From an uncultured Candidatus Binatia bacterium (lineage in GTDB: Bacteria > Desulfobacterota > Binatia > UBA9968 > JAJDTQ01): a DNA stretch of 64,000 nt. The stretch spans positions 2,176,001 through 2,240,000 of the forward strand of contig OZ251459.1 in the NCBI GenBank assembly GCA_965242525.1, read 5' to 3'. The position numbers and the translations under genes were made by a program. Under the pieces are notes generated by a model. The model searched no databases, had not been told where the DNA came from, and saw only the letters and a list, made by a program, of their open reading frames with translations. Shown piece by piece: positions 19,129-35,052 of the stretch (its first letter is position 1; every line of letters starts with the position of its first letter).

Positions 19129-20856
19129 TCAGCGCGGCGGCCGGCGATGCCACTCCTGGACGTTCCACAGGGTTGCGTCCCAGGCGTTGTGGCGCACCCC
19201 TCCGAGGGACAGCGCCCGGGCCGCCACCTCGCCCCGGTGGACCAGCGGGATCACCGCCCCGTCGCCCACCAGCATGTCGTTCATGCGCTTGGCGATTTCG
19301 GCGCGCCTCCCGATCCCCGGAGTCTTGGCAAGCAACGCCGCGAGTTCGTCGTACTCCGGGTTGCAGTAGCGTGAGATGTTGCGGCCGATCCACTGGTTCC
19401 CGGGCGCCGGGATCTCCTCGCACAGCCAACCCTGCAGGTATGCCTGGGGATCGGTGCCGTCGAAGTTGTTGGTGTACATCTGGATGTCCGCGTAGAACTT
19501 CTGGTAGGTGTCCGGGCTCGCCGGATCGCTGCCGAAGAACACCGACCCGCTGATGTTCTTCAACTCGGTCTCGACGCCGATCTCCCGCCACATCTGCTTG
19601 ACCAGGGCCTGGGTGCCCTGGCGGACCGAATTGGTGGAGGTCTGGTAGAGGATCGAAAGCCGCACCCCGTCCCTGGCGCGGACCCCGTCCGGGCCGCGCG
19701 CCCAGCCGGCTTCGTCCAGCAGCCGGTTGGCCCCGGCCACGTCCCGGGTCCTGCACCAGTCGTTGGCCGCGGAGGCATAGACCGGCGGGGCCGGGAGCAC
19801 GTTGCAGGTGACCCGACCCGCGGGGCCGTAACCCGCGTCCACCAGGACCTCCCGGTCGATGGCCATGGACAGGGCGCGCCGCACCGCGGGGTCCGAGAGG
19901 AAGGGGTGGGGGTTCCTGCCGTCCTGATAGGTGGAACGCTTGGCGCCCAGGGCCGGATCGGGGTTGGTGAGCTGCACCACCAGGCGCTCCACCAGGGTGC
20001 CGAAAGCGGACAACACTTCGCCCTTGCCCGCCTTGGCCATGACGGCGAGGATCTCCGGCTCCACCTGCAGGTTCCAGCCATAGTCGAACTCGCCGGTCTC
20101 CAGCACCGCCCGAGCCGACGAGACCGCGTCTCCACCGCCCTTCAGCAGGACCGAGGAGAAGGCCGGGCGGTCAGGGTCTCGGTAGCGGTCGTTGAGTACG
20201 TAGCGGACCACGTCGTTGGCCCGGAACTCCTGCACCTCGAAGGGGCCGGTGCCCACGGGACCGAAGTTCTCCTCCGTGCACTCCGGCGCCCTGGCGCCCA
20301 TGCACTTCTCGAACTGCTTCTTCTGGAGGACCGGACAGACCGAGCCGGCGAACGGGGCATAGGGGAACGGCATGGGGACGGCGAAGGAGATCCGCACCGT
20401 GTGGTCGTCCACCGCCTCCACGGACGCCACGTTCTGGAACCGGCTGGCCGCGTTGCAGCCGCCCTCGGGATGCATGCAGTAAGCCGCGGTGAAGGCCACG
20501 TCCGCGGCGGTGAACGGCGTGCCGTCCGACCACACCACGTCCTTTCGGAGCTTCCAGGTGATGGACTTGAGATCCGCGGCGACTCCGCGGTTGGCCACGG
20601 TGGGGATCTCCGACGCCAGGGCCGGCGACATGACGCCGTTCTCGTCGTAGCGCACCAGCGGCTCCAGGACCAGGGCGGCCGCGTGGATGTCCTTGGTCCC
20701 CCCCGACAGGAGCGGGTTCAGGATCGACGGCGCCTGCCAGTAGAGCAGCTTCAACTCGCCGTCCGCGCCGCGCCCGGCTTGCGCCGGGGACGCCAACGCC
20801 GCCAGAGCCGCCGCGGCCGCGATGAACAGTCCGAGCAATCGCATCTTCGCCCTCAT
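19129..20856 (-). CDS. Peptide ABC transporter substrate-binding protein (family 5)
   Basis: Signal peptide MRAKMRLLGLFIAAAAALAALASPAQA; WSDGTPFTAADV, PVGTGPF. Confidence 0.92.
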   Translation of the reverse strand: MRAKMRLLGLFIAAAAALAALASPAQAGRGADGELKLLYWQAPSILNPLLSGGTKDIHAAALVLEPLVRYDENGVMSPALASEIPTVANRGVAADLKSITWKLRKDVVWSDGTPFTAADVAFTAAYCMHPEGGCNAASRFQNVASVEAVDDHTVRISFAVPMPFPYAPFAGSVCPVLQKKQFEKCMGARAPECTEENFGPVGTGPFEVQEFRANDVVRYVLNDRYRDPDRPAFSSVLLKGGGDAVSSARAVLETGEFDYGWNLQVEPEILAVMAKAGKGEVLSAFGTLVERLVVQLTNPDPALGAKRSTYQDGRNPHPFLSDPAVRRALSMAIDREVLVDAGYGPAGRVTCNVLPAPPVYASAANDWCRTRDVAGANRLLDEAGWARGPDGVRARDGVRLSILYQTSTNSVRQGTQALVKQMWREIGVETELKNISGSVFFGSDPASPDTYQKFYADIQMYTNNFDGTDPQAYLQGWLCEEIPAPGNQWIGRNISRYCNPEYDELAALLAKTPGIGRRAEIAKRMNDMLVGDGAVIPLVHRGEVAARALSLGGVRHNAWDATLWNVQEWHRRPPR

Positions 20857-20880
20857 GCCCCCGCCCTCCGGGTCTCTTCC

Positions 20881-20989
20881 GGAACCTCCGGTCAATTCCG
20901 GCTCGACGTGTTTCTCCCTGTGAAAAAGCGCGTCCTTCGACTTCGCTACGCTACGCTCAGGACGAACGGGGCAATCGTTCGGGGTTTCC
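20881..20989. mobile_element. Type B MITE-like element (about 109 bp)
   Basis: Termini GGAACCTCCG.../...CGTTCGGGGTTTCC enclosing the REP-like core. Confidence 0.8.
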
Positions 20990-21011
20990 TTCGGCAAGGC
21001 CCGGTCCGCGG

Positions 21012-21863
21012 TCAACTGAACAGGACCTTGGCCATCTCCGACCGGTACCGGTCCGCCAACTCGCTTCCCGGCCCCAGGACCTCGAAGATCCGGACCATCG
21101 CCTTGCGGGCGCCGTCGTCCTCGAAGGCGCGGTCTTTGCGCAGCACCGCCAGGAACTCTTCCAACGCGGCCTCGTAGAGCTCTTCCGCGGCAAGGGCCTG
21201 GGCCAGCCGGAAACGCAACTCCACGCTGTCCGGGGCCGACGACAACCGCTGCCTGAGGGAATCCACGTCCGCGCCGTCCCCCTGGCTCAACTGCTGCCGG
21301 GCGATCAGCCGGTCGGCCTCCCTGCGCTCGGGCGAGCCCGGGGGCACCCGCTCGAGCAGCGCCAAGCCGCGCTCCGCATCCGTACCGAGCAGGATGCGTC
21401 CCATGCCGAGCAGCGCCCCCGCGTGGGGCGGCGACTCGTCCAGCACCTGTTGGTAGATTTTCGATGCCCCTTCCGCGTCGCCCCGGGACCACAACCCGTC
21501 CGCCTCGGCCGCCATCTCGTCCTGACGCGAGGGCGCCACCGAACCCAGGACCTCGCGGACTCCGGCTTCGGGAAGCGCCCCGGTGAACTCCGCGGCAACG
21601 GCGCCGTCCTTGAAGACCTTGACCGCGGGGATCCCCTGTATGCCGAAGCCGGACGCAAGCCCGGGGTTCTCGTCCACGTTGACCTTGGCCAGGAGGAGCT
21701 TGCCCTCGTATTCCTCCACCACCCGCTCCAGCACCGGACCCAGGACCCTGCACGGGCCGCACCACGGCGCCCAGAAGTCCACCGCCACCGGCGTTTCTTC
21801 GGAACGCTTCAGCACTTCCGCTTCGAACTCGGCGTCGCCAACGTCGAAAACCAGCGATTCCAT
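21012..21863 (-). CDS. Thioredoxin + TPR chaperedoxin (YbbN/CnoX-like)
   Basis: DFWAPWCGPC; C-terminal DDGARKAMVRIFEVLG...YR. Confidence 0.9.
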   Translation of the reverse strand: MESLVFDVGDAEFEAEVLKRSEETPVAVDFWAPWCGPCRVLGPVLERVVEEYEGKLLLAKVNVDENPGLASGFGIQGIPAVKVFKDGAVAAEFTGALPEAGVREVLGSVAPSRQDEMAAEADGLWSRGDAEGASKIYQQVLDESPPHAGALLGMGRILLGTDAERGLALLERVPPGSPERREADRLIARQQLSQGDGADVDSLRQRLSSAPDSVELRFRLAQALAAEELYEAALEEFLAVLRKDRAFEDDGARKAMVRIFEVLGPGSELADRYRSEMAKVLFS

Positions 21864-21919
21864 GATGTTCCGGGACCTTTCCGCAGGGCCGGACCGGGTA
21901 CGGGCGAGAGCCCGGCCCG

Positions 21920-22405
21920 CTATTCCCCGAGCGGGTCGAAGTCCGACCCGTTGAGGGTGAACCGACGCTCCACCGGGGTGGGCTTCAGGATCGTCTGCAT
22001 GACGTAGCACCCGTTCTCGGCGTTGCGGACCACTGCGGCCACCCGCTCCGCGGGCTCGTCGGACTCCAGGTCCAGCCTGGTCTCGAACCCGACCCCCTGG
22101 GCCTCCACGGTCTCCCGCAGCACCGACCCCTGGCTCTTGAAACGCCCGGTCACGTGGACCCGGGCCTTGCCGATCTTCACCTTCATCATTTCCCCGTACC
22201 GGGAAACCTGGGTCAGCAGTCAGAACCCCAGGGAAAGCGCGAAGTACGCCAACGGCGGCGGCGCGCTGTTGTCGCCGCCGGTCCGCTCGGCCTCGTCGCA
22301 CAGGACGGTGAACCCCCGGGCCTCGCCGCTCTTCTTCTGCCGTTCCAGGGCCGCGGCGTCGGCCTCGATCACGATCTCCCGCTTGACGGTCACGTCTTCG
22401 GCCAT
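21920..22405 (-). CDS. OsmC/Ohr-like protein, probable selenoprotein (in-frame TGA at codon 62)
   Basis: ORFs 22220-22405 and 21920-22189 are in the same frame: PPPLAYFALSLGF-TGA-LLTQVSRYGEMM; second Cys in AENGCYV; hairpin after the TGA. Confidence 0.8.
22189..22206 (-). promoter_or_regulatory. Putative bacterial SECIS hairpin
   Basis: UUUCCC-GGUACG-GGGAAA stem-loop starts 13 nt after the UGA, with G first in the apical loop. Confidence 0.6.
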
Positions 22406-22437
22406 ATATCAACCTCCAGGGTTTGGTTTGCGAAACA

Positions 22438-22677
22438 GGAACCTCCGAACGATCGGGACAGGGGGCAAGGCTTCCTTCGACTTCGCCTCGCGTCCTTCGA
22501 CTCCGCTTCGCTACGCTCAGGACGAACGGAGATGGGAGTCCACGCTCAAGGCGAACGGGGATGGGAGCGCAACCCTTCCCAACCGACTCGTGCTGGTCAC
22601 CCATGTTCAAGGCGAACGGGGATGGAGTGTCAGGGCGAGGGAGTCCATCCCGGATGCCTCGATCGTTCAGCGGTTCC
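22438..22677. mobile_element. Expanded type A MITE-like element (240 bp)
   Basis: TIRs GGAACCTCCGAACGATCG/CGATCGTTCAGCGGTTCC; core plus extra partial core units. Confidence 0.85.
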
Positions 22678-22743
22678 AAAGGTAACCCATCAGCCGGAGA
22701 CCGTCAATCGACCCGGCTGCACGAAGCACCGTCAAGCACCGTC

Positions 22744-23244
22744 ATGGCCCGGCGACACGCAGCCCTGATCCCGCTTTCACGCGACCATCACCAGGGGTTG
22801 ACCCTGGCCTTGCGCTGCCGCAAGCACGCCCTCGGGCAGCTCAACCCCGGCGACGCCGCATCCCTGGAGGCATGCGCCGCGGAAGCCTCCCGTTTCTTCG
22901 GCGAGAGCCTGACGCCCCACTTCGAGGCCGAAGAGAAGGTCCTGTTCCCGCTGATGGCGGAATACCGGGAGAGCCGGGAGCTCGTGGCCGAGCTCCGGGG
23001 CGAGCACCGGGAGTTCCACCGTCTGCTGGCGCGGGCCGGGGATCCCCGCGGGCTGCGGAAGTTCCTGTTCGACTTCGGCGACCTGCTGGAGCGGCACATA
23101 CGGAGCGAAGAGCGCGGCCTCTTCCCCGCCTTCGAGAGGCTCGTGCCGCAGGAGGAAGCCGACCGGGCCGGCCGGGAGTTGCGGCAAACCCTGGAAGGGA
23201 GCCGTGGGGCGTCCCGAGACCCCGAACTGCCGGAGTCGTCATGA
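22744..23244 (+). CDS. Hemerythrin-like (HHE cation-binding) protein
   Basis: LSRDHHQGL, HFEAEE, EHREF, HIRSEER. Confidence 0.85.
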   Translation: MARRHAALIPLSRDHHQGLTLALRCRKHALGQLNPGDAASLEACAAEASRFFGESLTPHFEAEEKVLFPLMAEYRESRELVAELRGEHREFHRLLARAGDPRGLRKFLFDFGDLLERHIRSEERGLFPAFERLVPQEEADRAGRELRQTLEGSRGASRDPELPESS

Positions 23245-23245
23245 C

Positions 23246-23756
23246 GAAACCCCGAACGGCCCTCCCCGTTCGTCCTGAGCGCAGCCGAAGCCGAGTCGAA
23301 GGACGCGTAGCGTAGTATCCTGTAACAGTGTCCAAGTCACTGGCATGGAGTATCTTGTCATGCACGGAAAACATGTCTTGCGCCGCATCCCCGCTGACAG
23401 AGCGAATGTTACAGGGTAGAAACCTCTGAACAATCGGGACAGAGAGCATGGGCGCGTCCTTCGACTTCGCTTCGCTACGCTCAGGACGAACGGGAATAGG
23501 GGCGTCAGGGTGAGGGAATCGGGAATCCATCCTGGATGTCTCGATTGTTCAGAGGTTTCGGTAGTAGTTCCCTGTAACAGCGACCGAGTCACTGGCGTGG
23601 AACATTCCATCATGCACCGCGAACATGGCTCGCGCTGTATCCCTGATGATAGAGTAACTGTTACAGGGTAGTAGTTTCCCGTTCGTCCTGAGCGAAGCGA
23701 AGCGAAGTCGAAGGACGCGCTTTCCCAAGGGAGAGCCGGCATTGAACGGACGTTCC
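23246..23756. repeat. Nested repeat mosaic: type B ends and cores, two 103-bp type C elements, one type A element
   Basis: B-left and core 23246-23307; C1 23316-23418; A 23419-23559 with GGTA duplication; C2 23568-23670; core and B-right 23678-23756. Confidence 0.85.
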
Positions 23757-23966
23757 ATGAACACCAAGACCGCGATCCTGTCCATCGACGGCCTGACCCC
23801 CGACACCGCAGCCGAGCTGTCGAAGACGCTCCGGGATGTCACGGGCGTCACCGAAGTCGATTTCTCGCTGGAACGAAAGGTAGTCGTGGTGGAGTTCGAC
23901 CCGGAGGCCGCAAGCGTGGACGGGCTCACGCGCGTGGTCCTGTCCAACGGCTACAAGGTCCTCTGA
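23757..23966 (+). CDS. HMA/CopZ-fold small protein lacking CxxC
   Basis: AILSIDGLTPDTA...GVTEVDFSLE...VEFDP...GYKV pattern. Confidence 0.7.
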   Translation: MNTKTAILSIDGLTPDTAAELSKTLRDVTGVTEVDFSLERKVVVVEFDPEAASVDGLTRVVLSNGYKVL

Positions 23967-24029
23967 CCCGCGGGGGTGAAACTCCCGTCCACGAGATGCG
24001 GACGGGGCCTTCGCCGTCTCGTTGGCCGG

Positions 24030-25628
24030 CTACTTGGTCACGTTGCGGTAATAGACCTGGTCGAAGTTCGAGCCGGCCACGAACCCCCGGACGTTGCGGC
24101 GGCGCGCGAACTGCTCGCTCTGCTGGAACATGACCACGTAGGGTCCCTCGGTCTGGAGACGCTCCTGTAGTTGCAGGTAGAGCTGCCTGCGCTTGGCCGG
24201 ATCCATCTCGTCGCGGGCCTGCACCACCATGGCGTTCAGGTCGTCCTGCGCCCATGCGTTGCGCCATGCGAGCACGCCGGTGAGCCCGGCCTCGGGGCGG
24301 TTGTCCGGGTTGTGCGCGAAGGAGTCCGCGTTGGAGTGCGGGTCCACGTAGTCCGGCGACCAGTGGGCCAGGATCAACTCGTGCTTGCGCCCCCGGTACC
24401 TGGGCCACAGGACCTTGCCTTCCCGGGCCACGACCCGGGCCTTGACGCCGACCCGCGCGAGGGTCGCCTGGACCGACCGCGCGATCAGTGGGAACGGCGG
24501 CGTGGTGAGGGTATCGATGCGCACTTCGAACCCGTCGCCGTGGCCTGCCTCGGCCAGCAGCGACTTGGCTTTCTCCACGTCGAGCCGGTACGGCGTCCCG
24601 GTATAGGCCGCCCACAGCCCCCTGGGCCAGAACGCCTGGTGCACCATGAACTGGCCCGCCAGGAAGGACTCCGCCATGCCCCGGTAGTCCACCGCGTGCC
24701 GCAGGGCCTGCACCACCTTGGCCTTGCCGAGGATCGGGTGCGATGCGTTGGCCGCCATATAGACCACCGTGCCGGTGGGAGAGCCGTCGATGGCCACGTC
24801 CGGGCGGCCCTCCACGGCCTTGATCTGGTCGGAGGTGAGGTTGCGCGCCAAGTCGATGTCGCCCTGCTCCAGCATCCGCCTCTGGGCGGAGGACTCGGGC
24901 ACGTGGCGCAGGACCACGCGCCGGGTCCCCGGAGGTCCCCGGCGGTAGTCGGGGTTGGCTTCGAGCGCCACCGACTCGTTGGCGGTCCAGCTATCGAGCC
25001 GGAACGGACCGGAGCCCGCGCTGTGGGACTTCAGCCACTCGTGGCCCAGGTCCCCGTCCTTCTCGTGGGCGAGCGCGAGTCGTTTGTCCACCACCGAGCC
25101 GACGCCGGCCGAGAGCACGTTCAACACGAGACCCGGGGAGAAGTCCTCCACGATGGTGACGCGCACGCGGCGTTGGTCCACCACCTGGACCAGGTCCTCT
25201 ACGTTGTCCGCGTTCCAGCCCAACTGGGTGAGGATGAAGGCCGGGGTCTTGTCGAGTTTCACCACCCGCTCCAGGGAGAACTCCACGTCCTCGGGACGCA
25301 CCGGGTTGCCGGAGTGGAACCTGAGACCCTGCCGGATCCGGAAGGTGACGGTCTTGCCGTCGGCGCTCACCGTGTGGCTCTCGGCGACGCCGCCCACGAG
25401 CCTGTCCGGGGCCTCGGGCTCGAACGTCATGATGCGGTCGTAGATGTTGGCCAGGAGCTCGCCGGCGGTGAACTCGAAGGCTTCGGCCGGGTCCAGGGTA
25501 ACCATGTCGGCCATGTCCTTGGCCATGACCAGGGTGTCCCCGGGGGTCACGGCCCGGACCGACGCCGCGGCAAGGATCAACGCCAACGCACACGACAGGA
25601 CGCCTGACAGGCGGAGATAAAGACACAT
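24030..25628 (-). CDS. ABC transporter substrate-binding protein (family 5)
   Basis: TLDPAEAFE, FHSGNPV, AGSGPF, WSPDYVDPHSNA. Confidence 0.9.
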   Translation of the reverse strand: MCLYLRLSGVLSCALALILAAASVRAVTPGDTLVMAKDMADMVTLDPAEAFEFTAGELLANIYDRIMTFEPEAPDRLVGGVAESHTVSADGKTVTFRIRQGLRFHSGNPVRPEDVEFSLERVVKLDKTPAFILTQLGWNADNVEDLVQVVDQRRVRVTIVEDFSPGLVLNVLSAGVGSVVDKRLALAHEKDGDLGHEWLKSHSAGSGPFRLDSWTANESVALEANPDYRRGPPGTRRVVLRHVPESSAQRRMLEQGDIDLARNLTSDQIKAVEGRPDVAIDGSPTGTVVYMAANASHPILGKAKVVQALRHAVDYRGMAESFLAGQFMVHQAFWPRGLWAAYTGTPYRLDVEKAKSLLAEAGHGDGFEVRIDTLTTPPFPLIARSVQATLARVGVKARVVAREGKVLWPRYRGRKHELILAHWSPDYVDPHSNADSFAHNPDNRPEAGLTGVLAWRNAWAQDDLNAMVVQARDEMDPAKRRQLYLQLQERLQTEGPYVVMFQQSEQFARRRNVRGFVAGSNFDQVYYRNVTK

Positions 25629-25735
25629 GGGAAAGCCTCCTGGTATCACAGCGGTCAGCGGGGCCGCGCAGCCGGCGTTCTCATCCCTGCCATACGTGCG
25701 AGGCGAACACAATCTGGCGTCGCTCCGACACAACG

Positions 25736-25903
25736 CTATTTCCTGACGAAACCGACGTAAACGTAGAGCGCAACCAGAACGCCTGAGACCACCAGGCGGA
25801 TATTGCCGTAGAAGGGATCGACCCGGAGTCCCAGGAACATAGCCCCGGAAACGACGAGATAGAGAACCGCCAGGGCGACGACGTGAACCAGGATCTTCAA
25901 CAT
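25736..25903 (-). CDS. Small two-TM membrane protein
   Basis: MLKILVHVVALAVLYLVV...VLVALYVYVGF. Confidence 0.45.
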   Translation of the reverse strand: MLKILVHVVALAVLYLVVSGAMFLGLRVDPFYGNIRLVVSGVLVALYVYVGFVRK

Positions 25904-25914
25904 GCCTAGGTCAC

Positions 25915-26100
25915 GGGATGGGAGTGCGATGATCGTCTCGTGCGCCGGAAGCGGAATGGCGCGCAACTCGGTGACGCATACTTGGGCGTTGCCGTTGACG
26001 GGTGGAAGCAAGTGTCGAGAAGGTGGCCGTTGTAGAGCGCCATCAAGCTCCATGCCTTCTCTTCTGAGAATGCGCCGCCGGACCGATGGACGTAGTTCAA
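25915..26100 (-). pseudogene. Frameshifted C-terminal fragment of an Eco57I/BsuBI-like DNA methyltransferase
   Basis: NYVHR...LMALYNGHLLDTCF then, in another frame, VNGNAQVCVTELRAIPLP. Confidence 0.5.
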
Positions 26101-26101
26101 A

Positions 26102-26192
26102 GGGTGCGGGCGGGGGGGACTCGACCCCCCCTGTGGCCTACTTGGCCCAGTGTTCGACAGTGAGTGGCTTCGTACTGCATGCGCATGTCCGC
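26102..26192 (-). pseudogene. Degenerate tRNA-like remnant (Leu/Ser class, long variable arm)
   Basis: Minus strand ends ...GGCC-AAGTA-GGCC...GGGGGGTCGAGTCCCCCCCGCCCGCACC; 5' GCGGAC partly pairs with the 3' acceptor strand. Confidence 0.35.
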
Positions 26193-26485
26193 TCCCCTCC
26201 TGGAGGACCCGCTAAGCCACGAGCTCGCACACGCCATCAAGCCTGAGTTTGATTCGCATTTCTACCTCCTTCTCTGATATGAACTCAATGCCCACAGGGG
26301 ACACGAGACCCAAGAAGGATCGAACATGCGCGACAGCCTTGAAGCCACACACAAAGTCACCCACCATATTAGCCAAGCTCTGAAACTGAGGACAGGGTAG
26401 CAAATATCCCGTACGATTTCAATATGTAGAATTGTCCAATGATCCATCTACCTTCGATCTTTGCCACGGGACCGGTTCCCCTTGC

Positions 26486-29400
26486 CTACCGCGGCGCCGC
26501 CAGTAGCATGGCGTCCAGCAGGCGCTTCTCTTCGCTGACCGAAGGGTACAGAGCGGACAGGGCGTTGGCAAGACGCAGGAAGTCGGGGCCGCGCTCGTGT
26601 TCCGCCTTCAGCAGGTTGCGCAGGGCTTGGCTGCGGCCCGATGCCTGCAAGAGCATGGCCGCGTGCACCCGGTCCAGCGTGGTGGCGTCCGGGGCCTGCA
26701 TCTCCGCGTCGTCCGCGATGAGGACCTTCCCCCCGCGGCTTCGGGCGCGCTTCTTCCGGGGGGCAGCCTCCATTTCGGGGAAAAGCACCTGCTGGACGGT
26801 GACCCGCGGGTCGCGTTCCAACCATTCCGCGGCCGTGTCCGCGCCGTCTTCGCCGAAAAGCTGCTTCCCTCGCTCCGTGGCGTTTATCAGCCGCACCACG
26901 CCCTTGTCCGTCTCGATGATCCGTCCCTCCCATTTGGACAGTTCGATGCCCAAGGGCTGGGCCAAGCGGCGCGCCACGTCGAAGACGAGGCTGTAGCCCC
27001 CGGGCTTGTCGCGGGGCGCGTCGTCCGCCTCGTCGTGGTCCTCGTCCTCCGCAACCTCGCCGCTGTCTTCGGAGGCGTCGTCGGCTCCGGTGCTTTGCAG
27101 GGTCCAGAGGAACAGGGCAGTCAGGCGGGTGTCCTCTTCCAGCACCCCGGCCATGCCGTTGCGCGCCTTCGCCTCCGCAGCCCCGAGGACGTTTTCGAGG
27201 GCGGTGCGCCCGACCACTTCCCACACCCGTTCCAGGTACTCCGGCAGGCCCACCTCACGCCCCTCCGCGGTCTCCACCTGCCGGTAGCGGCTGTATATCT
27301 CCAAGGCCGGGCCGATGCAGGCGAAGACCAGGTCCGCGCCCCGGACCCCTTCGCCTTGCAGCCGTTCCATCCATTCGCCCACGCGGATGGGCAGTTCGCG
27401 CAGCACGTCCGCCCAATCGCCCACCGGCGCGTCGTCGAGGCGGGGCCGGCAGACTAGGTGAACGCTGGTGGCCAGGGACGCGGTATCACGCGCATTGAGA
27501 CGAGAACCCATCTCCGTTGCCACCGGCCAAGAGCCGGTGATGGTCCAGCCGCCGCTGATCATCCCGGACAGCAGCGCTTCCCAGCCCTCGGTGGTCTTGT
27601 GGGCGAAGACGACCGATCCGACACCGTCCTGGCGCAGGATGCGCCGCCCTTCGGCAAAAGCCCGAACCATTCCCGATTCGTAGGTCCTTGCCGTCTTGGT
27701 CGAACTGCTGAGCCGATGCGGTCGGTCAACGACGATTTCTTCTTCTTTCGGGGTCAGGTCGTGCGAGCCGGTGAGGTTGCAAAGAGCCATCATTTGTTCT
27801 GGCAAGGCGCGCTTGAGCCAGACCAGGAAGAAATCGGACAAGTGTGCATAGGGAACGGCGTCGTAGTAGGGCGGGTCGGTGAACCAGACACTGGCGGCGG
27901 CGTCGGGCAAAGGATAAGCCTTGGCGTCTGCGGGTTGCACTTGGCCAAGGTTGGATTCGGGCCATGAGTCAATAACATTGGCAATCCAGTCCAGCGCCCC
28001 GGCATAACCGCCAGTGGATTCCGAAAAGGGGTTGCTCTCGCTGTAGTCCCAGACCATGGGGAGAGCCTGTCGAGAATAGACGCCCTCATGCTTCTCGCCT
28101 GATGTATGCCATCGGCATAGCGAGCATCCTGCATTGGCGGTTCGTGTCAACGCCAGCGCCAGAGGTTGTTTCGCCATGTCGTCGATCGTTGGGAACCTCT
28201 GAACGATCGGGACAGGGGGCGTGAGCGCGTCCTTCGACTTCGCTTCGCTACGCTCAGGACGAACGGAGGTCTCCACTTCGCTACGCTCAAGATGAACGGG
28301 CGTCTCTGCTTCGCTACGCTCAAGACGAACGGGGATGGGATGGTCAGGGTGAGGGAGTCCATCCCGGATGTCTCGATTGTTCGGGAGTTTCGTTGATGAT
28401 TTCGTCAATTCCACCAGCGCCGCCTTCTGCCGCGCGGTGAATAGATCGCCCCATGTCGTCATTCCGTAGATTGGTACGCTGATGCGTCGAATCTCGTTCA
28501 GCGAAATCGGCTCGTCCGGCGCCGGACAAGGCCCCTGCCTCCCGCCCCGTTCCCATTCATCGAGAATCCCCGCCAGCCGCGCCTGCGCCTTGTGCACCGC
28601 CGCGTAATCGGCGTCCGTGGGTAGCCGATAGCGCCGGCCAGGCTCATCTTCCTTCAGCGTCACCACCGCGGTCATGCGCGCACCGCCCACGCGCTTCCCT
28701 TTGCCATCGAAGATCACGTCCGCACCGCCGCGCTGCTCGGCAAGTTGCGCCCGCACCCGCTCCGGCGGTAACACAACGCGGCAACACGGGCAGGTCGCCT
28801 TTGCCCGCGTCACCGTGCCCGCACGCACGTCCTTGTCGGTCTTCGGCTCGAAAATCTCCAACTCGACACGCGGCGGCTCCTTGGCCGGCTGCACGACCTT
28901 ATGGAACCTCTGAACAATCGGGACAGGAGGCATGAGCGCGTCCTTCGACTCCGCTTCGCTACGCTCAGGATGAACGGAGGTCTCCGCTTCGCTACGCTCA
29001 GGACGAACGGGGATAGGCGTGTCAGCGTGAGGGAATCCATCCTGGATCTCTCGATCGTTCAGATGTTTCTTGTAGCGGAGCGCCTGACGGCCTCGGACCT
29101 TGATTCGTTTGCCGCCCTCCCTCTTGAAGACCGCCTTCTTCGCAAGCCACAACGACCGTAGCAACGGAATCTCTGCCCCGCAGTTTGGAGCTTCGCACCG
29201 CACCGTGCGCGCCCACAAGTAGGCGATGGGCGTGCTCCCGTCCGGGTCCGCAGGGTAGAGGTCGGCCAGTTCCCGTTCCGCGGCCTGCCTGACCTCGCTG
29301 CCGACCTTGCGCAACTCATCGGCCAGCCCCGAACCGTGGCGCGGGATGTCTTCCAGCATCACCTTGAGGATCAGGCAGGCCACCGGGTTCAGGTCGCTGG

Positions 29401-29884
29401 CGAACGCCTCGCAGCCCAACCGCAATGCTTCCAACGGAATCGAGCCGCCGCCCGCGAACGGGTCCACCACCAGGGGCGGCTCCACGCCGTGGGCCGCCCT
29501 CACCAGCGCCCGGGCCGTTTCGAGCCGGACGCCGTTTGCGGCAAGGCTCCAGTTGGCGAAGTCGGCGATGAACTTGAGCAAGACCCGCCGCAAGCCCTCG
29601 TCCGGCTCGATGGCCTCGCTCCACCCTTCCGGCCGCCCGTGCATCTTGAGGAGGATCCGCCGCGCCTCCTTCTTGAACGCTTCCGGGCAATGCGGGTCGC
29701 ACGGGTCCGGCAGCAGCAGCGCCATCAGCATGGCCCGGGAGGAGGCCAGCGGCCGCCGCGCCCACCACAGGTGCAGCGTGGAAGGGTGCCCGTGCCGGAT
29801 GGACTTCTCCCGCGCCGCGTGCCGCGATACCTCGGCAATGGGGAAGTCCACCTCCGCCAGCCGCCTGCACTCCCTGGGGATCAT
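26486..29884 (-). CDS. DUF1156-domain adenine DNA methyltransferase carrying two in-frame MITE insertions
   Basis: HPSTLHLWWARRPLA, motif I DPFAGGGSIP, motif IV TDPPYY; natural start MIPREC at 29884. Confidence 0.9.
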   Translation of the reverse strand: MIPRECRRLAEVDFPIAEVSRHAAREKSIRHGHPSTLHLWWARRPLASSRAMLMALLLPDPCDPHCPEAFKKEARRILLKMHGRPEGWSEAIEPDEGLRRVLLKFIADFANWSLAANGVRLETARALVRAAHGVEPPLVVDPFAGGGSIPLEALRLGCEAFASDLNPVACLILKVMLEDIPRHGSGLADELRKVGSEVRQAAERELADLYPADPDGSTPIAYLWARTVRCEAPNCGAEIPLLRSLWLAKKAVFKREGGKRIKVRGRQALRYKKHLNDREIQDGFPHADTPIPVRPERSEAETSVHPERSEAESKDALMPPVPIVQRFHKVVQPAKEPPRVELEIFEPKTDKDVRAGTVTRAKATCPCCRVVLPPERVRAQLAEQRGGADVIFDGKGKRVGGARMTAVVTLKEDEPGRRYRLPTDADYAAVHKAQARLAGILDEWERGGRQGPCPAPDEPISLNEIRRISVPIYGMTTWGDLFTARQKAALVELTKSSTKLPNNRDIRDGLPHPDHPIPVRLERSEAETPVHLERSEVETSVRPERSEAKSKDALTPPVPIVQRFPTIDDMAKQPLALALTRTANAGCSLCRWHTSGEKHEGVYSRQALPMVWDYSESNPFSESTGGYAGALDWIANVIDSWPESNLGQVQPADAKAYPLPDAAASVWFTDPPYYDAVPYAHLSDFFLVWLKRALPEQMMALCNLTGSHDLTPKEEEIVVDRPHRLSSSTKTARTYESGMVRAFAEGRRILRQDGVGSVVFAHKTTEGWEALLSGMISGGWTITGSWPVATEMGSRLNARDTASLATSVHLVCRPRLDDAPVGDWADVLRELPIRVGEWMERLQGEGVRGADLVFACIGPALEIYSRYRQVETAEGREVGLPEYLERVWEVVGRTALENVLGAAEAKARNGMAGVLEEDTRLTALFLWTLQSTGADDASEDSGEVAEDEDHDEADDAPRDKPGGYSLVFDVARRLAQPLGIELSKWEGRIIETDKGVVRLINATERGKQLFGEDGADTAAEWLERDPRVTVQQVLFPEMEAAPRKKRARSRGGKVLIADDAEMQAPDATTLDRVHAAMLLQASGRSQALRNLLKAEHERGPDFLRLANALSALYPSVSEEKRLLDAMLLAAPR
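28192..28391. mobile_element. Type A MITE (200 bp) in frame within the DUF1156 gene
   Basis: TIRs, perfect GTTG direct repeat flanks, 204 bp = 68 codons. Confidence 0.92.
28903..29069. mobile_element. Type A MITE (167 bp) in frame within the DUF1156 gene
   Basis: TIRs, TTAT/TTGT flanks, 171 bp = 57 codons. Confidence 0.92.
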
Positions 29885-29886
29885 GA

Positions 29887-30019
29887 GGAACCTCTGGACA
29901 ATCGGGTCAGGGGACATGAGCGCGTCCTTCGACTCCGCTTCGCTACGCTCAGGACGAACGGGAATAGGGGATCAGGGTGAGGGAGTCCATTCCGGATGTC
30001 TCGATTGTCCAGAGGTTCC
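29887..30019. mobile_element. Type A MITE (133 bp) 2 bp upstream of the DUF1156 start codon
   Basis: Perfect TIR GGAACCTCTGGACAATCG/CGATTGTCCAGAGGTTCC. Confidence 0.9.
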
Positions 30020-30029
30020 AGAAATCTCC

Positions 30030-30077
30030 GGATTCCCGCCCCCGCTTCCGCGAGGACATGCTTTCGCGGGAATGACG
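30030..30077. repeat. Second REP-like palindrome class (GTCATTCCCGCGAAAGC...GCGGGAATCC)
   Basis: ATTCCCGC...GCGGGAAT inverted repeat typical of widespread REP/dRS3-like repeats. Confidence 0.65.
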
Positions 30078-30132
30078 AGGGGTGGGGAGGGAGTGTCATA
30101 ACCCATACAAAAGCCGGAAGACCCGTTCCTCC

Positions 30133-31281
30133 TCACTCATTGCTCAATAGCTCACCAAGATCCGTCAATGCGCGCTCCATCGGCAGGGCGACAATATCAT
30201 CCATGTAAAGAGGCGTGGACCCGCCGAAGAACAGGTAGCACTTGGCTGGGGGATAGTCTTTCTTGAACTCCCGGAGCGCTCTCGCATCCCTGGGTTGGAT
30301 CCGGGTGGAGCGCTTGATTTCGATGGCCAGCAGGCCGCGCGGCCCGTACAGGACGAAATCGACCTCCAGGTTGTTTCGGGTGCGCCAGAAGAATATCCGG
30401 TAGCCGTATTCATGGTAGTCGTTGACCGCCCTCAGTTCCTGGAGCACCAGTGTTTCCAGCGCGGGACCGTCCATCTCGGCTTCGGAATCCAGAGGCCCCA
30501 CCGGTCGGATCGCCCGGAACACGCCCGTGTCGAAGAAATAGAATTTCTCGTGCGAGACGAGCTTGCGCTTGGCCCTGCGGGAGAACACCGGCAGGCGCAC
30601 GGCGATCAGCAGGTCTTCCAGGATGGAGAAATAGTTCTCCGCCGCCGAGCGTTCGATGTGCGCCTCGCGCGCGACGGAGCTGATGTTGAGGGTCGCTCCC
30701 TGGGAGAAACTCGCCACTTCCAGGAAACGGGAGAAATGGCCGATGTTGCGCGTCAGGCCCTCCTGCATGACCTCTTCCCGCAGGTATGTCTGCACATAGT
30801 CCTTGAGGTATCTTCCGGGATCGCTTTCACTGAACCGAGCAGGCAAATGGCCGAACTGCAAGGAATCGCGCAGGCGGAAGGCGTCCTGCTGCTCCGTCAC
30901 CGTCAGGGGATGCATGCGGTAGGTCAAGGCCCGCCCGGCCAGCAGGTTGACCCCTCTTCGCCTCAACGTCCTGGCGCTGGACCCTGTCAGGACGAAGTTC
31001 AGCCGGCGGGCTTCGATCAGGTCATGGACCTCGTTCAGCAACGCAGGGATACGTTGCACCTCGTCTATGATGACCCGGTCGGTATGATCCGGAGGAATGA
31101 GATCCCTGAGTTGTCCGGGGTTCGCGGACAGGCGGTTGTAGAACTCTGATTGCAGCAGGTTGACGAAGAGGGCCCGGGGGAGATGGCGCTTCAACCAAGT
31201 GGTCTTTCCCGTCCCCCTCGGCCCGAACAGGAAGAAACTCTTGCGTGATTCCAGGGGTTTCTCGATCAGCCGCTCGAACAT
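30133..31281 (-). CDS. AAA_14 ATPase + DUF4143 protein
   Basis: GPRGTGKTT, IDEVQR, TGSSAR, KFYFFDTG, EVDFV...IEIK. Confidence 0.9.
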   Translation of the reverse strand: MFERLIEKPLESRKSFFLFGPRGTGKTTWLKRHLPRALFVNLLQSEFYNRLSANPGQLRDLIPPDHTDRVIIDEVQRIPALLNEVHDLIEARRLNFVLTGSSARTLRRRGVNLLAGRALTYRMHPLTVTEQQDAFRLRDSLQFGHLPARFSESDPGRYLKDYVQTYLREEVMQEGLTRNIGHFSRFLEVASFSQGATLNISSVAREAHIERSAAENYFSILEDLLIAVRLPVFSRRAKRKLVSHEKFYFFDTGVFRAIRPVGPLDSEAEMDGPALETLVLQELRAVNDYHEYGYRIFFWRTRNNLEVDFVLYGPRGLLAIEIKRSTRIQPRDARALREFKKDYPPAKCYLFFGGSTPLYMDDIVALPMERALTDLGELLSNE

Positions 31282-31419
31282 CAGCAACCCACTCCTGGCG
31301 AATTTGCGCACTATAGACCAATTCAGGGGCAAAATGCAGTCGGAAAGTGAAAAAAGGCCGGATTTTTTCGGGCCGGAAAGCCCGGCGGATTGGCAAAGGG
31401 AACGACGGAGGACGGCGCG

Positions 31420-32775
31420 CTAGTCGCCGGCCACGGTCATGCGCGAGACCTTGACCGTGGGTGAAGCGACCGCGGCCTGGGTGCGGAGGTCGTCGCCGAC
31501 CATCTCGATGCGGTCCAGCATGTCGTTCAGGTTCCCGGCGATGGTGAGCTCGGACACCGGATAGGCCAGCTCTCCCTTGTCGATCCATATGCCCGCGGCG
31601 CCGCGGGAGTAGTCGCCGGTCACCAGGTTGACGCCGAATCCCATCAGGTCGGTGACGTAAAGGCCCTGCTCCACCGAGCCGATGATCTCCGCCACGCCGT
31701 GGGCGCCCGGGGCCAGGTAGAAGTTCATGGGCGCCACGCCGGAGGCGGCGCCCGCGCCCCGGGAGGCGTTTCCGGTGGGCGCGCCGCCGAGCTTCCGCGC
31801 GCTGTAGGCGTCGAGCAGGTAGCTGCGCAGCACCCCGGCCTCCACCACGTGCTTGCGCCGAACCCCCACGCCTTCGGAGTCGAAGGGCCGCGAACCCAGG
31901 GCCGAAGGGATGGCGCCGTCGTCGATGAGGTGGACGAGCTCGGAAGCGACCCGTTGTCCGATCCGGTCGCACAGGAAGGAGGCGCGCTGGTAGAGGGCGT
32001 AGCCGGAAACGGCCTGGGCCACGTGCCGGGCCAGCGACCCTGCGGCGTTGGCGTCGAACACCACCGGGAACTCCCCGGTGGGCGCCTTGCGGGCGCCGAT
32101 GCGGCGGACCACGCGGCGTCCGGCCTCCCGTCCCACCGCTTCGGGAGAATCCAGCCCCCGGCGCGCGCGGGCCGCGGAGAACCAGTAGTCGCGTTCCATG
32201 GAGCCGTTGGACGCCGCCACCGGCGCCGCGGAAAGCCGAAAGGAGGAGGCCGCGTACTCTCCGGCGAAACCCTCGGAGTTGGCGTAGAGTATCCGGTTGA
32301 AGGAGCTGCCGAACTCCCCGCCCTCCGAGTTGGTGATCCGGGGGTCGTATTGCAGCGCGTGCTGCTCCGCCAAGCGCGCGGCCTCGATCTTCTCCTCCAC
32401 GGACATGCGCCGGGCTTCCTCGTCCACCAGGTCCAGGTCCGGCAGCTCCCCGGCGAGGTCCCCTGGGTCCGGCAGGCCGCTGAACTCGTCCTTGGCCGTG
32501 GCCCGGGCCATGTCGCAGGTCTGCTGCAGCAGGCGGTCCAGGGACGCCCGGGAGACGTCCGACGTGGCGGTGGCGGCCGAGCTCCGGCCGAAGAAGAGCC
32601 GCAGCCCGAGCCTCGTCTCGTGGGCTTGGCTGACGCTCTCCACCTGGCCGAGGCGCACCGTCACCCGCACGCCCTCGTGCTGCGTCACGGTCACGTCGCC
32701 CTGCGAGGCGCCGCGCTCTCTGGCCCGGGCCAGCAGCCCGGCCGCCAGTTCCCGGTCTATGGGCAAACGCTCCAT
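31420..32775 (-). CDS. pmbA: TldE/PmbA family protein
   Basis: SRPFDSEG, TGDYSRGAAG, ELTIAGNL. Confidence 0.9.
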   Translation of the reverse strand: MERLPIDRELAAGLLARARERGASQGDVTVTQHEGVRVTVRLGQVESVSQAHETRLGLRLFFGRSSAATATSDVSRASLDRLLQQTCDMARATAKDEFSGLPDPGDLAGELPDLDLVDEEARRMSVEEKIEAARLAEQHALQYDPRITNSEGGEFGSSFNRILYANSEGFAGEYAASSFRLSAAPVAASNGSMERDYWFSAARARRGLDSPEAVGREAGRRVVRRIGARKAPTGEFPVVFDANAAGSLARHVAQAVSGYALYQRASFLCDRIGQRVASELVHLIDDGAIPSALGSRPFDSEGVGVRRKHVVEAGVLRSYLLDAYSARKLGGAPTGNASRGAGAASGVAPMNFYLAPGAHGVAEIIGSVEQGLYVTDLMGFGVNLVTGDYSRGAAGIWIDKGELAYPVSELTIAGNLNDMLDRIEMVGDDLRTQAAVASPTVKVSRMTVAGD

Positions 32776-32778
32776 GCC

Positions 32779-34293
32779 TCAGGCCTGGAAACCGCTCGGC
32801 CCGCGCACCGCGGTGCCGCCCACCACCAACTGGTCGATGCGGATGGTGGGAAGCCCCACGCCCACGGGCACCGCCTGGCCGTCCTTGCCGCACGTGCCGA
32901 TGCCGTCGTCCAGGGCCAAGTCCGCGCCCACCCTGCTGACGCGCCGGAGCACGTCCGGCCCGTTGCCGATGAGGGTGGCGTCCCGCACCGGGCGCGTCAC
33001 CTTCCCGTCCTCGATCAGGTAGGCCTCGTTGGCCGAGAAGACGAACTTGCCGCTGGTGATGTCCACCTGCCCGCCGCCGAAGGAGACCGCGTAGATGCCC
33101 TCCTTCACCGAGCGGATGACGTCTTCCGGGTCGTCCTCCCCCGCGAGCATGAAGGTATTGGTCATCCGGGGCATGGGGACGTGGGCGTAGCTTTCCCGGC
33201 GGCCGTTGCCGGTGGGCTCCATGCCCATGAGCGACGCGTTCAACCGGTCGTGCAGGTAACCCCGGAGGACGCCCTTCTCGATGAGCACCGTCCGCTGGGT
33301 GGGCGTCCCTTCGTCGTCGAGGTTGAGGGACCCCCGCCGCCGGGGGATGGCGCCGTCGTCCACCACCGTGCAGAGCTCGGTGGCCACCCGTTCCCCGATG
33401 CGGCCGGAGAAGGCCGAGGTCTTGCGCCGGTTGAAGTCGGCTTCCAGACCGTGCCCGATGGCCTCGTGGAGCAGGATCCCGGGCCAGCCCGGCCCCAGCA
33501 CCACGTCCATGGGGCCGGCCGGCGCAGCCACCGCATCGAGGTTGACCAGCGCCCGGCGGGCCGCCTCCCGCGCATGGGCCTCCAACTGCTCGGGACCCAC
33601 GCACTCGTCCAGGGCCAGGCGTCCGCCCCATCCGAAATAGCCCGCCTGCCGGTTGCCCCCGGACTCCGCAATGCACCGGACGTTGATGCGCACCAGGGGC
33701 TGCAAGTCTCCCAGCACCCATCCCTGGGACGAGGCGATGAGGACGATCTTGTCCTCCGTGGCCAGGGAGGCGAACACCCCCTTGATCCTTGGGTCGGCCT
33801 TCCGGGCGAACCGGTCCAGGTCCTGCAACAGGCCGACCTTCCAGTCCAGCGGCGCGTCCGAGACGGATCGGGCCGCCGGATACAGGTCGTGCCGCGGAGC
33901 CGGCGCCGCGGGGATCCGCGCCGGCGCGTCGGCCCCACGGTCGTGGGCGATGACGTTGGCCGTCCTCGCCGCGGAATCGAGGTTCTCGATGGTTACGTCG
34001 TCCGTGAACGCGTACCCGGTCCGGGCCTCGACCAGCACCCGCGCGCCCACGCCGTTGGCGGTGGAGACCGACGCATGCTTGACCAGCCCCTCTTCGAGCT
34101 GGACCTGGTCCTGGGTCCGATACTCGAAATAGAGGTCCGCGTAATCCGCCTTCCGCGCAACCGCCTGTCCCAGGACCCGGTCCAGGTCGCTCGCCGTGAC
34201 CCCGAACCGCCGGTCGAAGAAGGCCGCCGGCGACGTCTCGCGTTCGCTCGAAGCAACCTCGTCCACGGCGTTGACGCCGCCCCGTATGGTCAT
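32779..34293 (-). CDS. tldD: TldD metalloprotease
   Basis: GILLHEAIGHGLEADFNR, PMPRMTNT, GTCGKDGQ. Confidence 0.95.
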   Translation of the reverse strand: MTIRGGVNAVDEVASSERETSPAAFFDRRFGVTASDLDRVLGQAVARKADYADLYFEYRTQDQVQLEEGLVKHASVSTANGVGARVLVEARTGYAFTDDVTIENLDSAARTANVIAHDRGADAPARIPAAPAPRHDLYPAARSVSDAPLDWKVGLLQDLDRFARKADPRIKGVFASLATEDKIVLIASSQGWVLGDLQPLVRINVRCIAESGGNRQAGYFGWGGRLALDECVGPEQLEAHAREAARRALVNLDAVAAPAGPMDVVLGPGWPGILLHEAIGHGLEADFNRRKTSAFSGRIGERVATELCTVVDDGAIPRRRGSLNLDDEGTPTQRTVLIEKGVLRGYLHDRLNASLMGMEPTGNGRRESYAHVPMPRMTNTFMLAGEDDPEDVIRSVKEGIYAVSFGGGQVDITSGKFVFSANEAYLIEDGKVTRPVRDATLIGNGPDVLRRVSRVGADLALDDGIGTCGKDGQAVPVGVGLPTIRIDQLVVGGTAVRGPSGFQA

Positions 34294-34409
34294 GCCCACC
34301 TCCTTGTCGGGTCGAGTTCCTCGCAACCAAGGGCCGGTCGCCGCCACGAATAGTCGCTGGCCACCAGGTTCTCGTGGAGTCGAGCAACCCCGCAGGCGAG
34401 GACCGCCCG

Positions 34410-34847
34410 TCAGATCAACTTGACCGCAGCGATGATCACCGCGGCTACGGTGAGCATCAAGCTGACGTTCCACCTGATGATGTCGGCCTTGACCTCGGCC
34501 AAGTCGGACTTGGTTGCCATGGTCCTTTCCATGACTACCACCCTGTCTTCCAGGTTGTGCATCCTGCTGTCCAGATTGTGCATCCTGTTGTCCAGGTCCT
34601 GCATCCTGTCGCTCAGGTGTTGCATCCTGTTGTCCAGATCCTGCACCCTGTCGCTCAGGTGCTGCACCGTGTCGCCCAGGTCCTGCACGTTGGCAGCCAC
34701 GGCCCCCAGGTCGGCTTTGGTGGCCAAGTCGGTGGCGGCTGCGTTGGCGACCGTGTCGAAGATTTCGACCACGGCTTCCGCGGTCTGGCGGGACATGCCG
34801 GTCGTCTCGAGACGGGTGACCGCCTTGTGTGTGTCGATGGCGTGCAT
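34410..34847 (-). CDS. DUF1640/CCDC90-like coiled-coil protein with heptad repeats
   Basis: IDTHKAV, LATKADL, seven 21-bp heptads, ATKSDL, C-terminal TM helix. Confidence 0.8.
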   Translation of the reverse strand: MHAIDTHKAVTRLETTGMSRQTAEAVVEIFDTVANAAATDLATKADLGAVAANVQDLGDTVQHLSDRVQDLDNRMQHLSDRMQDLDNRMHNLDSRMHNLEDRVVVMERTMATKSDLAEVKADIIRWNVSLMLTVAAVIIAAVKLI

Positions 34848-35052
34848 GTCCAGAGCCTACACCCTGTCGGGGAGTTTGGAAAGGGTGGAAAGAGCGTCTC
34901 CCTCGTGCCTGCCGCCCTCCCGTTTCCCGAACCGGATTTGTGTGGTATGAGGGAGGGTTCTTGCAGGGCCGCGCCCCGGGAGACACGCCGAGCGCGTCAG
35001 CTTCCTGTAGCATGGAAGGACGCGGGACGGAACCTGCTTCGAGTCGTCAGGA

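Follow-up and report, generated by a model that had tools for sequence, protein, structure and literature searches.

How can a gene for a DNA methyltransferase hold two copies of a mobile element and still be open from start to stop? The question is raised by a 64,000-nucleotide (nt) stretch of contig OZ251459.1 (assembly GCA_965242525.1) from an uncultured Candidatus Binatia bacterium, here called the window, in which a DUF1156 methylase gene contains two in-frame copies of a miniature transposable element with inverted repeats (MITE). The copy at 28903-29069 is called insert 1 and the copy at 28192-28391 insert 2; coordinates are those of the window unless they carry the name of another sequence. 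An initial annotation of this DNA described the element as 'frame-preserving' or 'coding-compatible', and proposed that it might be excised precisely to switch the methylase. The evidence set out below makes it quite probable that the inserts are tolerated disordered loops, survivors of chance in-frame MITE insertions, and that they represent neither an adaptation of the element nor a switch. The gene and the element copies in and next to it are the following.

26486..29884, minus strand: DUF1156/HmaB-type (BREX-related, 'BR') N6-adenine DNA methyltransferase of 1132 amino acids, identified from Pfam, PADLOC and homologue alignments.
29441..29464, minus strand: motif I, DPFAGGGS, intact and in conserved alignment columns.
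28903..29069, minus strand: insert 1, a MITE of 167 nt with two 33-nt units, bounded by terminal inverted repeats (TIRs) and a target-site duplication (TSD; TTAT at 28899-28902, TTGT at 29070-29073).
28192..28391, minus strand: insert 2, a 200-nt MITE that contains three 33-nt units, has a degenerate inner TIR and is bounded by TIRs and the TSD GTTG at 28188-28191 and 28392-28395.
28241..28333, unstranded: tandem array of the 33-nt unit inside insert 2 (Tandem Repeats Finder: period 33, 2.8 copies, 86% matches, score 144).
27935..28186, minus strand: hypervariable part of the target-recognition module, which starts directly after insert 2 and has no alignable similarity among close homologues.
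27860..27877, minus strand: motif IV, DPPYYD, intact and in conserved alignment columns.
29887..30019, minus strand: third MITE copy of 133 nt, with its end 2 nt upstream of the start codon of the methylase.

The minus-strand open reading frame (ORF) 26486..29917 is open over 1143 codons, the first 11 of which traverse the third element copy. Alignment places the methylase start at ATG 29884 (MIPRE...), which is common to the homologues and gives a protein of 1132 residues. The N-terminus of the protein matches Pfam DUF1156 (PF06634; 4.9e-22, 78 bits against a cut-off of 24 bits), and the protein matches PADLOC HmaB (6e-110). HmaB is the methylase of the helicase-methylase-ATPase (Hma) system, and PMC12839542 places these enzymes among the 'DUF499-centred BREX-related' systems. 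The domain plan given there comprises a helical DUF1156 domain and an N6-adenine methyltransferase core, with the target-recognition insert placed after the second core strand. Motifs I (FxGxG) and IV (DPPY) are invariant or nearly so among 62 homologues, which bears out the initial description of an intact gene with intact motifs. By analogy with that paper and the MANTIS preprint (bioRxiv 10.64898/2026.09.23.753747), the segment 27935..28186 is probably the specificity-determining part of the target-recognition module. The guanine-plus-cytosine (GC) content of 27900-28191 is 0.58, against 0.67 for the genome.

Together with its TSD, insert 1 adds 171 nt, or 57 codons (KHLNDREI...PIVQRFHK), which encode methylase residues 273-329. 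Insert 2 and its TSD add 204 nt, or 68 codons (KLPNNRDI...PIVQRFPT), corresponding to residues 499-566. The orientation and phase of the two inserts are identical (...LNNRDI...PIVQRF...), and the two TIR-bounded segments with their 4-bp repeats are read in the sequence as originally described. Each copy keeps one intact outer TIR; in insert 2 the inner TIR is degenerate, and in insert 1 one TIR. Insert 2 is located at the N-terminal edge of the hypervariable region, exactly where conservation stops.

The homologues of the methylase lack the inserted segments. A peptide of the element core is present in three of the 120 best homologues, namely P0002 (paralogue B, see below), P0003, and P0007, where it occupies a different site; the other 117 are without it, and the gaps expected at exactly these two peptides are found. 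In a 14-sequence alignment, insert 1 is shared by the window protein and P0002 only, insert 2 by the window protein, P0002, and P0003, and the others have clean gaps. Insert 1 is absent from 79 of the 82 homologues in alignment A4, and the remaining three have at most seven residues at its position. The genes of congeners align to residue 283 only.

The same genome contains two paralogues. Paralogue B (C1:1634813-1638175) is 92% identical to the window gene over a 3.6-kb segment that includes the upstream MITE copy; the shared segment, window 26442-30026, ends at the outer end of that copy. Both genes carry both inserts with the same mutated TSD, and exactly one 33-nt unit, in insert 1, distinguishes them. 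Paralogue C (C1:2076924-2079959) has neither insert and shares 76 nt of the upstream MITE copy. It provides the DNA empty site for insert 1, in which ...CTCCGGT is joined directly to ATCGGG..., and its protein reads ...RY-RVV..., in agreement with the earlier observation that removal of the 28903 insert restores RYKVV. P0003 has insert 2 and the TKSS before it in common with the window gene; its variable region differs and is of the P0004/P0005 type. MITE-free P0004 and P0005 read ...EL-RRFP-KERT... where P0003 reads ...PIVQRFP-KERT... (alignment A1, columns ~520-600), and their RFP could go back to the element as a footprint or be coincidental.

The window gene and paralogue B were compared by Nei-Gojobori counting of synonymous (dS) and non-synonymous (dN) divergence. 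The 1003 native codons have a dS of 0.175 and a dN of 0.027, giving a dN/dS of 0.157. The 113 insert codons contain 4 synonymous and 13 non-synonymous changes, a ratio of ~1.0. Because both paralogues already carry the inserts with the same mutated TSD, the purifying selection on the host protein continued after the insertions. The insert peptides appear, from these counts, to be unconstrained in sequence.

A structure model of the methylase built on an 83-sequence cross-phylum alignment has a mean predicted local distance difference test score (pLDDT) of 81.4 and a predicted template modelling score (pTM) of 0.82. A previous model, for which 62 sequences with identities of at least 67% gave only a shallow alignment, reached a mean pLDDT of 44.7 and was unusable. 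Within the N-terminal 790 residues of the 83-sequence model, long coils of low confidence are confined to 281-327, within insert 1, and 509-561, within insert 2, both with flanks that score above 90. Insert 1 comes after strand 267-271, a β-strand of a Zn-ribbon-like part, and insert 2 is positioned between helices 484-507 and 567-585. In the model, both fall within the recognition insert, after core strand 2 (159-163) and before the motif-IV strand (664-669). The model indicates that both inserts form disordered loops in the target-recognition module. A Foldseek comparison with the Protein Data Bank returned only weak generic matches to Rossmann methyltransferases (best E 0.012), and a profile search of solved structures with the methylase gave no hits.

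The element belongs to a large family. The TIR pattern GGAACCTCTGAACNATCG at no more than three mismatches has 10 matches in the window, against 0.18 expected, and defines five copies: the three listed above and two intergenic ones.

23419..23559, unstranded: intergenic MITE copy of the 141-nt class with a 7-bp duplication, from TIR matches.
22438..22677, unstranded: intergenic MITE copy of 240 nt with an expanded interior, from TIR matches.

An extra TIR-like match with three mismatches lies at the window edge (69-86) and is probably a further copy cut by the window start. In the chromosome, 178 left and 187 right TIR ends were identified at no more than 5 mismatches of 24, against none in a reversed-sequence control. 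Adjacent TIR pairs delimit 129 copies of 110-499 nt with TIRs of 18-24 bp. A BLAST search with the five window copies found 656 merged stretches; together they cover 63 kb, 1.53% of the chromosome. Of the 129 TIR pairs, 52 have an exact 4-bp TSD and another 33 have one with a single mismatch; flanks compared at 2, 3, and 5 bp match exactly in 9, 5, and 2 pairs. The TSD is AT-rich (GC 0.21-0.44 per position), preceded by C and followed by G. Copy lengths cluster at 131-135, 139-142, 165-175, 197-207, and 229-241 nt, in steps of 33. The 33-bp growth unit that the initial annotation had recognized is thus seen in these clusters, in the array within insert 2 and in the difference between the paralogues; likewise, the 7-bp duplication that it had noticed in the 23419 copy separates the ~134-nt and ~141-nt classes. 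With TIRs, a fixed 4-bp TSD, small size, many copies, and no transposase inside, the element is a MITE.

The suggested relation to the IS5 family of insertion sequences (IS) is upheld by a decayed element. The 99% complete genome contains no intact IS4/IS5-type transposase; it has one PF01609 fragment and no PF13340 match. The fragment belongs to an internally deleted, decayed IS of 866 bp (L096:972-1837; G000:C1:2465162-2466027) with the TSD CAAA/CAAA, a DUF772 N-terminal domain (4.9e-21), and a C-terminal fragment of DDE_Tnp_1. Of 18 bases at its right end, 16 agree with the MITE TIR; at its left end, the first 9 bases are the same. This decayed IS is likely the parent of the MITE. We conclude through this single decayed element, from the match of its ends, its DUF772 and DDE domains, and the 4-bp TSD, that the MITE is of the IS5 family and that its parent is extinct here. 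A search for TIR pairs 0.6-4 kb apart, as an autonomous element would have them, gave seven candidates; the three examined enclose ordinary genes (a periplasmic binding protein, EamA, and DUF4175). TIR pairs at a distance of 1-3 kb bracket genes of this ordinary sort and not transposases. Among the 31 genomes searched, full-length element copies are confined to this one. The ~40-46-nt core of the element (...RPERSEAE... / ...SLRSGRTG...) is also a separate short repeat, often in close inverted pairs, and accounts in this genome for ~130 stretches 44-50 nt long. Of 18 congeners, 16 have the ~40-nt core as a separate small repeat without the full TIR element. Examples of the short repeat are window 23260-23316 and 23676-23721, and congeners G003, G008, G009, G012, and G018.

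Is the element coding-compatible, as had been proposed? Its length plus four is divisible by 3 in 40 of the 129 copies (31%). The 139-nt consensus is open in three of six frames, in accordance with the additional open frames first seen over the window copies; three open frames make survival within genes easier and are unremarkable at 60% GC. Genes around the copies were called with a home-made codon log-odds caller trained on 651 long ORFs. In a first pass over the 656 stretches, the caller found non-coding sequence on both sides of 458 and a coding flank on one side of 184; a further 13 were otherwise split, and a single one was read through in frame, as against 982 of 1968 random placements (50% inside genes). 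In ~98% of the stretches, no reading frame reaches the element on at least one side. A second pass with open frames and relaxed scores provided 12 candidate frames, three of which are real internal in-frame cases: the window gene, paralogue B, and a distant DUF1156 gene (L001, P0122). Three candidates (L004, L005, L007) have nonsense-like translations without a Pfam hit and are not genes. In three others (L006, L008, L009), the element is upstream of the sole Pfam domain, in leader sequence. The candidate frames at C1:627791, 2390979, and 2792522 have the element within the first 100 codons of a stop-to-stop frame with a negative upstream score. In a collection of 5.8 billion proteins, the insert-1 peptide matched 11 proteins longer than 100 residues, seven of which are DUF1156/HmaB methylases (two truncated); three of the other four are short domain-less ORFs, and one has the peptide in an N-terminal leader. 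Frame preservation is not a property of the element family: nearly all copies are intergenic, and, as described next, those within genes use three different frames or orientations.

Copies of the core also occur in a second DUF1156 family. P0122, P0123, and their nearest relatives have the core in the opposite orientation (SASFDSASLRSGRTG) directly after the conserved LFTNRQLLALGTFVREIR helix, a position equivalent to the site of insert 2. P0126 has a further nested full copy at the equivalent site, and P0130 reads the core in the third frame. A copy directly before DPPYYD is present in 4 of the 16 aligned sequences of this family, the distant homologues of which are without any element copies. 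In P0007, the core insert is at the C-terminal edge of the variable region. The alignments indicate that these are several independent in-frame events, in three frames and at at least four sites, all in one enzyme family. At the same edge of the variable region in the second DUF1156 family, P0128-P0132 have a lineage-specific segment of 50-100 residues (SEAAPLGHDSGSSEL...; alignment A3, columns 535-620), which may be another repeat family. In congener G002 (L023:247-9671), the orthologous methylase lies between genes that, judged from their translations, resemble a SNF2-type helicase (upstream) and an ATPase (downstream). An element that looks from its translation like an IS3-type IS splits this orthologue at the edge of the variable region, in the same place as insert 2, and a fragment of the MITE core is found upstream of the orthologue's start.

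The window methylase is solitary. It is flanked by genes for an AAA/DUF4143 ATPase and an ABC-transporter binding protein, not by a DUF499 ATPase/helicase operon, and the closest DUF499 match is 118 kb away. The distance to the nearest DUF499 gene is 48-199 kb for all three MITE-bearing DUF1156 genes and 4.5-13 kb for all four full-length MITE-free ones (far from DUF499: 3 of 3 vs 0 of 4, p = 0.03). Four DUF499 genes are present in trans in the genome. The codon score of the window methylase is 0.22, compared with a typical value of ~0.5. The terminal CAGAGG of the upstream copy 29887-30019 sets GAGG 6 nt before the methylase ATG, and this copy may now supply the ribosome-binding site of the gene. 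It folds on an 18-bp TIR stem (z = -4.35). A promoter scan of 26300-30200 found no sites, terminator-like sites in the same interval number 3 against 2.8 expected, and an Rfam scan of 20000-32000 at E <= 0.1 gave no matches. The neighboring gene 30133-31332 (minus strand) encodes the AAA_14/DUF4143 ATPase and matches the PADLOC candidate PDC-S01 (3.5e-58). In the window ORFs 19129-21765, 21012-22679, and 32779-35013 (minus strand), 280-380 codons precede the first Pfam domain; these long 5' parts are probably spurious extensions in high-GC DNA. One of the three extended ORFs passes through the MITE 22438-22677.

We propose the following course of events. An IS5-family-derived MITE, with a basic unit of ~134 nt and an expandable 33-nt unit, would have proliferated in one species, and most of its insertions into genes would have been lost. 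Two insertions into a solitary BREX-related (Hma/DUF1156) methylase could have survived because, by chance, they added 3n bases in a stop-free frame. They would have landed at permissive spots of the recognition insert, one after the β-strand of the Zn-ribbon-like part and the other on the border of the hypervariable region. Duplication of the gene would then have given paralogue B, and both copies would have kept evolving as proteins that carry the inserts as disordered surface loops. The enzyme would presumably still be active and the loops functionally neutral.

Several observations weigh against this account. The inserts are less diverged synonymously than the native gene (dS 0.051 vs 0.175, Fisher p = 0.007). 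Pure neutrality does not predict such a low value; a nucleotide-level constraint or, at a guess, gene conversion among the copies is needed. The in-frame survivors are limited to one gene family, which is more than simple tolerance predicts. The first pass of the gene census overlooked three of the four known in-gene copies, including the window's own two, owing to the atypical codon usage of the methylase. Moreover, the activity of the solitary copy is not assured, since it has no DUF499 neighbor and the methylase of the related MANTIS system (bioRxiv 10.64898/2026.09.23.753747) needs its ATPase partners for methylation.

The low divergence of the inserts relative to synonymous sites would also be expected if they were functional, either as portable homology for the swapping of specificity cassettes or as linkers tuned by changes in the number of 33-nt units; we consider such functions unlikely. 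Tuning would fit the single-unit difference between the paralogues, but the number of units varies family-wide in intergenic copies as well, and the dN/dS of ~1 in the insert peptides speaks against function. In favor of swapping, the element is found at the borders of the variable region: insert 2 lies exactly at the end of conservation, the second DUF1156 family has element sequence at the equivalent N-terminal edge and, in the opposite orientation, a copy at the C-terminal edge directly before DPPYYD, and the core insert of P0007 is at the C-terminal edge as well. P0003 combines insert 2 and TKSS of the window gene with a variable region of another type, and dS between the window gene and paralogue B drops across insert 2, from ~0.22 upstream to 0.11-0.15 downstream (p = 0.02). 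However, mosaicism of the variable region is equally evident without a MITE (P0008 compared with P0018 and P0004), insert 1 is in a conserved part and not at a cassette edge, and the unrelated IS3 element at the same edge in the congener fits a merely permissive or exposed site. That MITEs at both edges of the specificity region act as recombination handles, which shuffle recognition cassettes between diverged methylase genes, is therefore an improbable proposal; if it were true, a mobile element would have been co-opted to diversify defence specificity, with 33-nt changes keeping the gene open. There is also a slim chance that the gene is dead, left over from a defence system that has decayed, with a frame that has merely stayed unbroken so far. 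The remoteness of the MITE-bearing genes from DUF499, the atypical codon score, and the disrupted congener copy agree with decay. Nevertheless, the native codons have been under purifying selection since the split from paralogue B, when the inserts were already present, both 3.4-kb frames are stop-free, and the catalytic motifs are invariant.

It is very improbable that precise excision of the inserts turns the methylase on and off. The perfect or near-perfect TSDs and the one intact outer TIR per copy would suit a switch, but the genome lacks an intact IS4/IS5-type transposase, the other TIRs are degenerate, and the same inserts persist in two paralogues whose nucleotide sequences differ by 8%. 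Since the reading frame is open while the inserts are present, expression of the gene does not require excision. No excision product was seen in contigs of four runs, although rare variants could escape contig data. The sole joint that skips insert 1 leads from 28898 to 29076 with six extra letters and matches paralogue C, and variant contigs at equal depth are paralogue B. The same contigs bear on whether the assembly joined unrelated sequences at the repeat, as the high copy number of the element and the breaking of short contigs at it might suggest; misassembly was among the outcomes that could have overturned the initial annotation. Contigs of the four runs, which come from three studies (sponge metagenome or coded organism), bridge the junctions between gene and element with no differences, and the same architecture is present in paralogue B and in the independent metagenome proteins P0003 and P0124-P0126. 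We regard the probability of such an artefact as negligible. Chance insertions tolerated as disordered loops are thus the explanation that we prefer.

Among known systems, the palindromic elements of Rickettsia (RPEs), named as a precedent in the initial annotation, are an apt comparison. In-frame MITE fusions are called 'not unusual' in a 2024 review (PMC10969869), which singles out the RPEs. As cited there (Ogata et al. 2000, 2002), an RPE is likewise a small palindromic mobile element that is inserted in frame and adds a fold-compatible peptide. Unlike in our case, nearly half of the RPE copies are in many unrelated genes, according to the review, whereas here less than 1% of copies are in genes, all of one methylase family. 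The two elements have no sequence relation, and the present one has an IS5-type parent and a 4-bp TSD. It is not a member of the RPE family, and its RPE-like behavior is restricted to three DUF1156 genes. With IS5-family IS and their MITE derivatives it shares TIRs starting with GGAA, an AT-rich target that is flanked by C...G and yields a 4-bp TSD, and DUF772 and DDE_Tnp_1 transposase domains in one decayed parent. It differs from them in having no intact autonomous copy here and an interior with an expandable 33-nt unit on a ~40-nt core repeat. QMITE1/2 of Coxiella burnetii, ERIC, and BOX are also bacterial MITEs that overlap ORFs, sometimes as in-frame fusions, as described in PMC5896051 and PMC10969869. 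The first of these sources reports that QMITEs hit functional genes mostly at their 3' ends, whereas the inserts described here are internal, 57 and 68 residues long, and two in one gene. HmaB of BR type 1 (PMC12839542) and MtsC of MANTIS (bioRxiv 10.64898/2026.09.23.753747) resemble the window protein in their DUF1156 domain, DPPY N6-adenine core, and large recognition insert after strand 2. The window gene differs in standing alone, without a helicase or DUF499 ATPase, and in the two MITE-derived loops in its recognition insert. Literature searches, which were not designed to prove absence, brought up no description of MITE inserts in DUF1156 or BREX-related methylases. Events of this kind are known; what is new in detail is the element family and the fact that it survives exclusively in solitary defence methylases.

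The methylase is a natural example of a protein that absorbs foreign segments of 57 and 68 residues and stays under purifying selection. The inserts mark two permissive sites in a defence methylase family for which the sequence search found no solved structure. The locus also demonstrates that survivorship alone can make a mobile element appear to preserve the frame. That the survivors are confined to solitary BREX-related methylases, where they lie at the edges of the specificity regions, is the one feature that might lead somewhere new.

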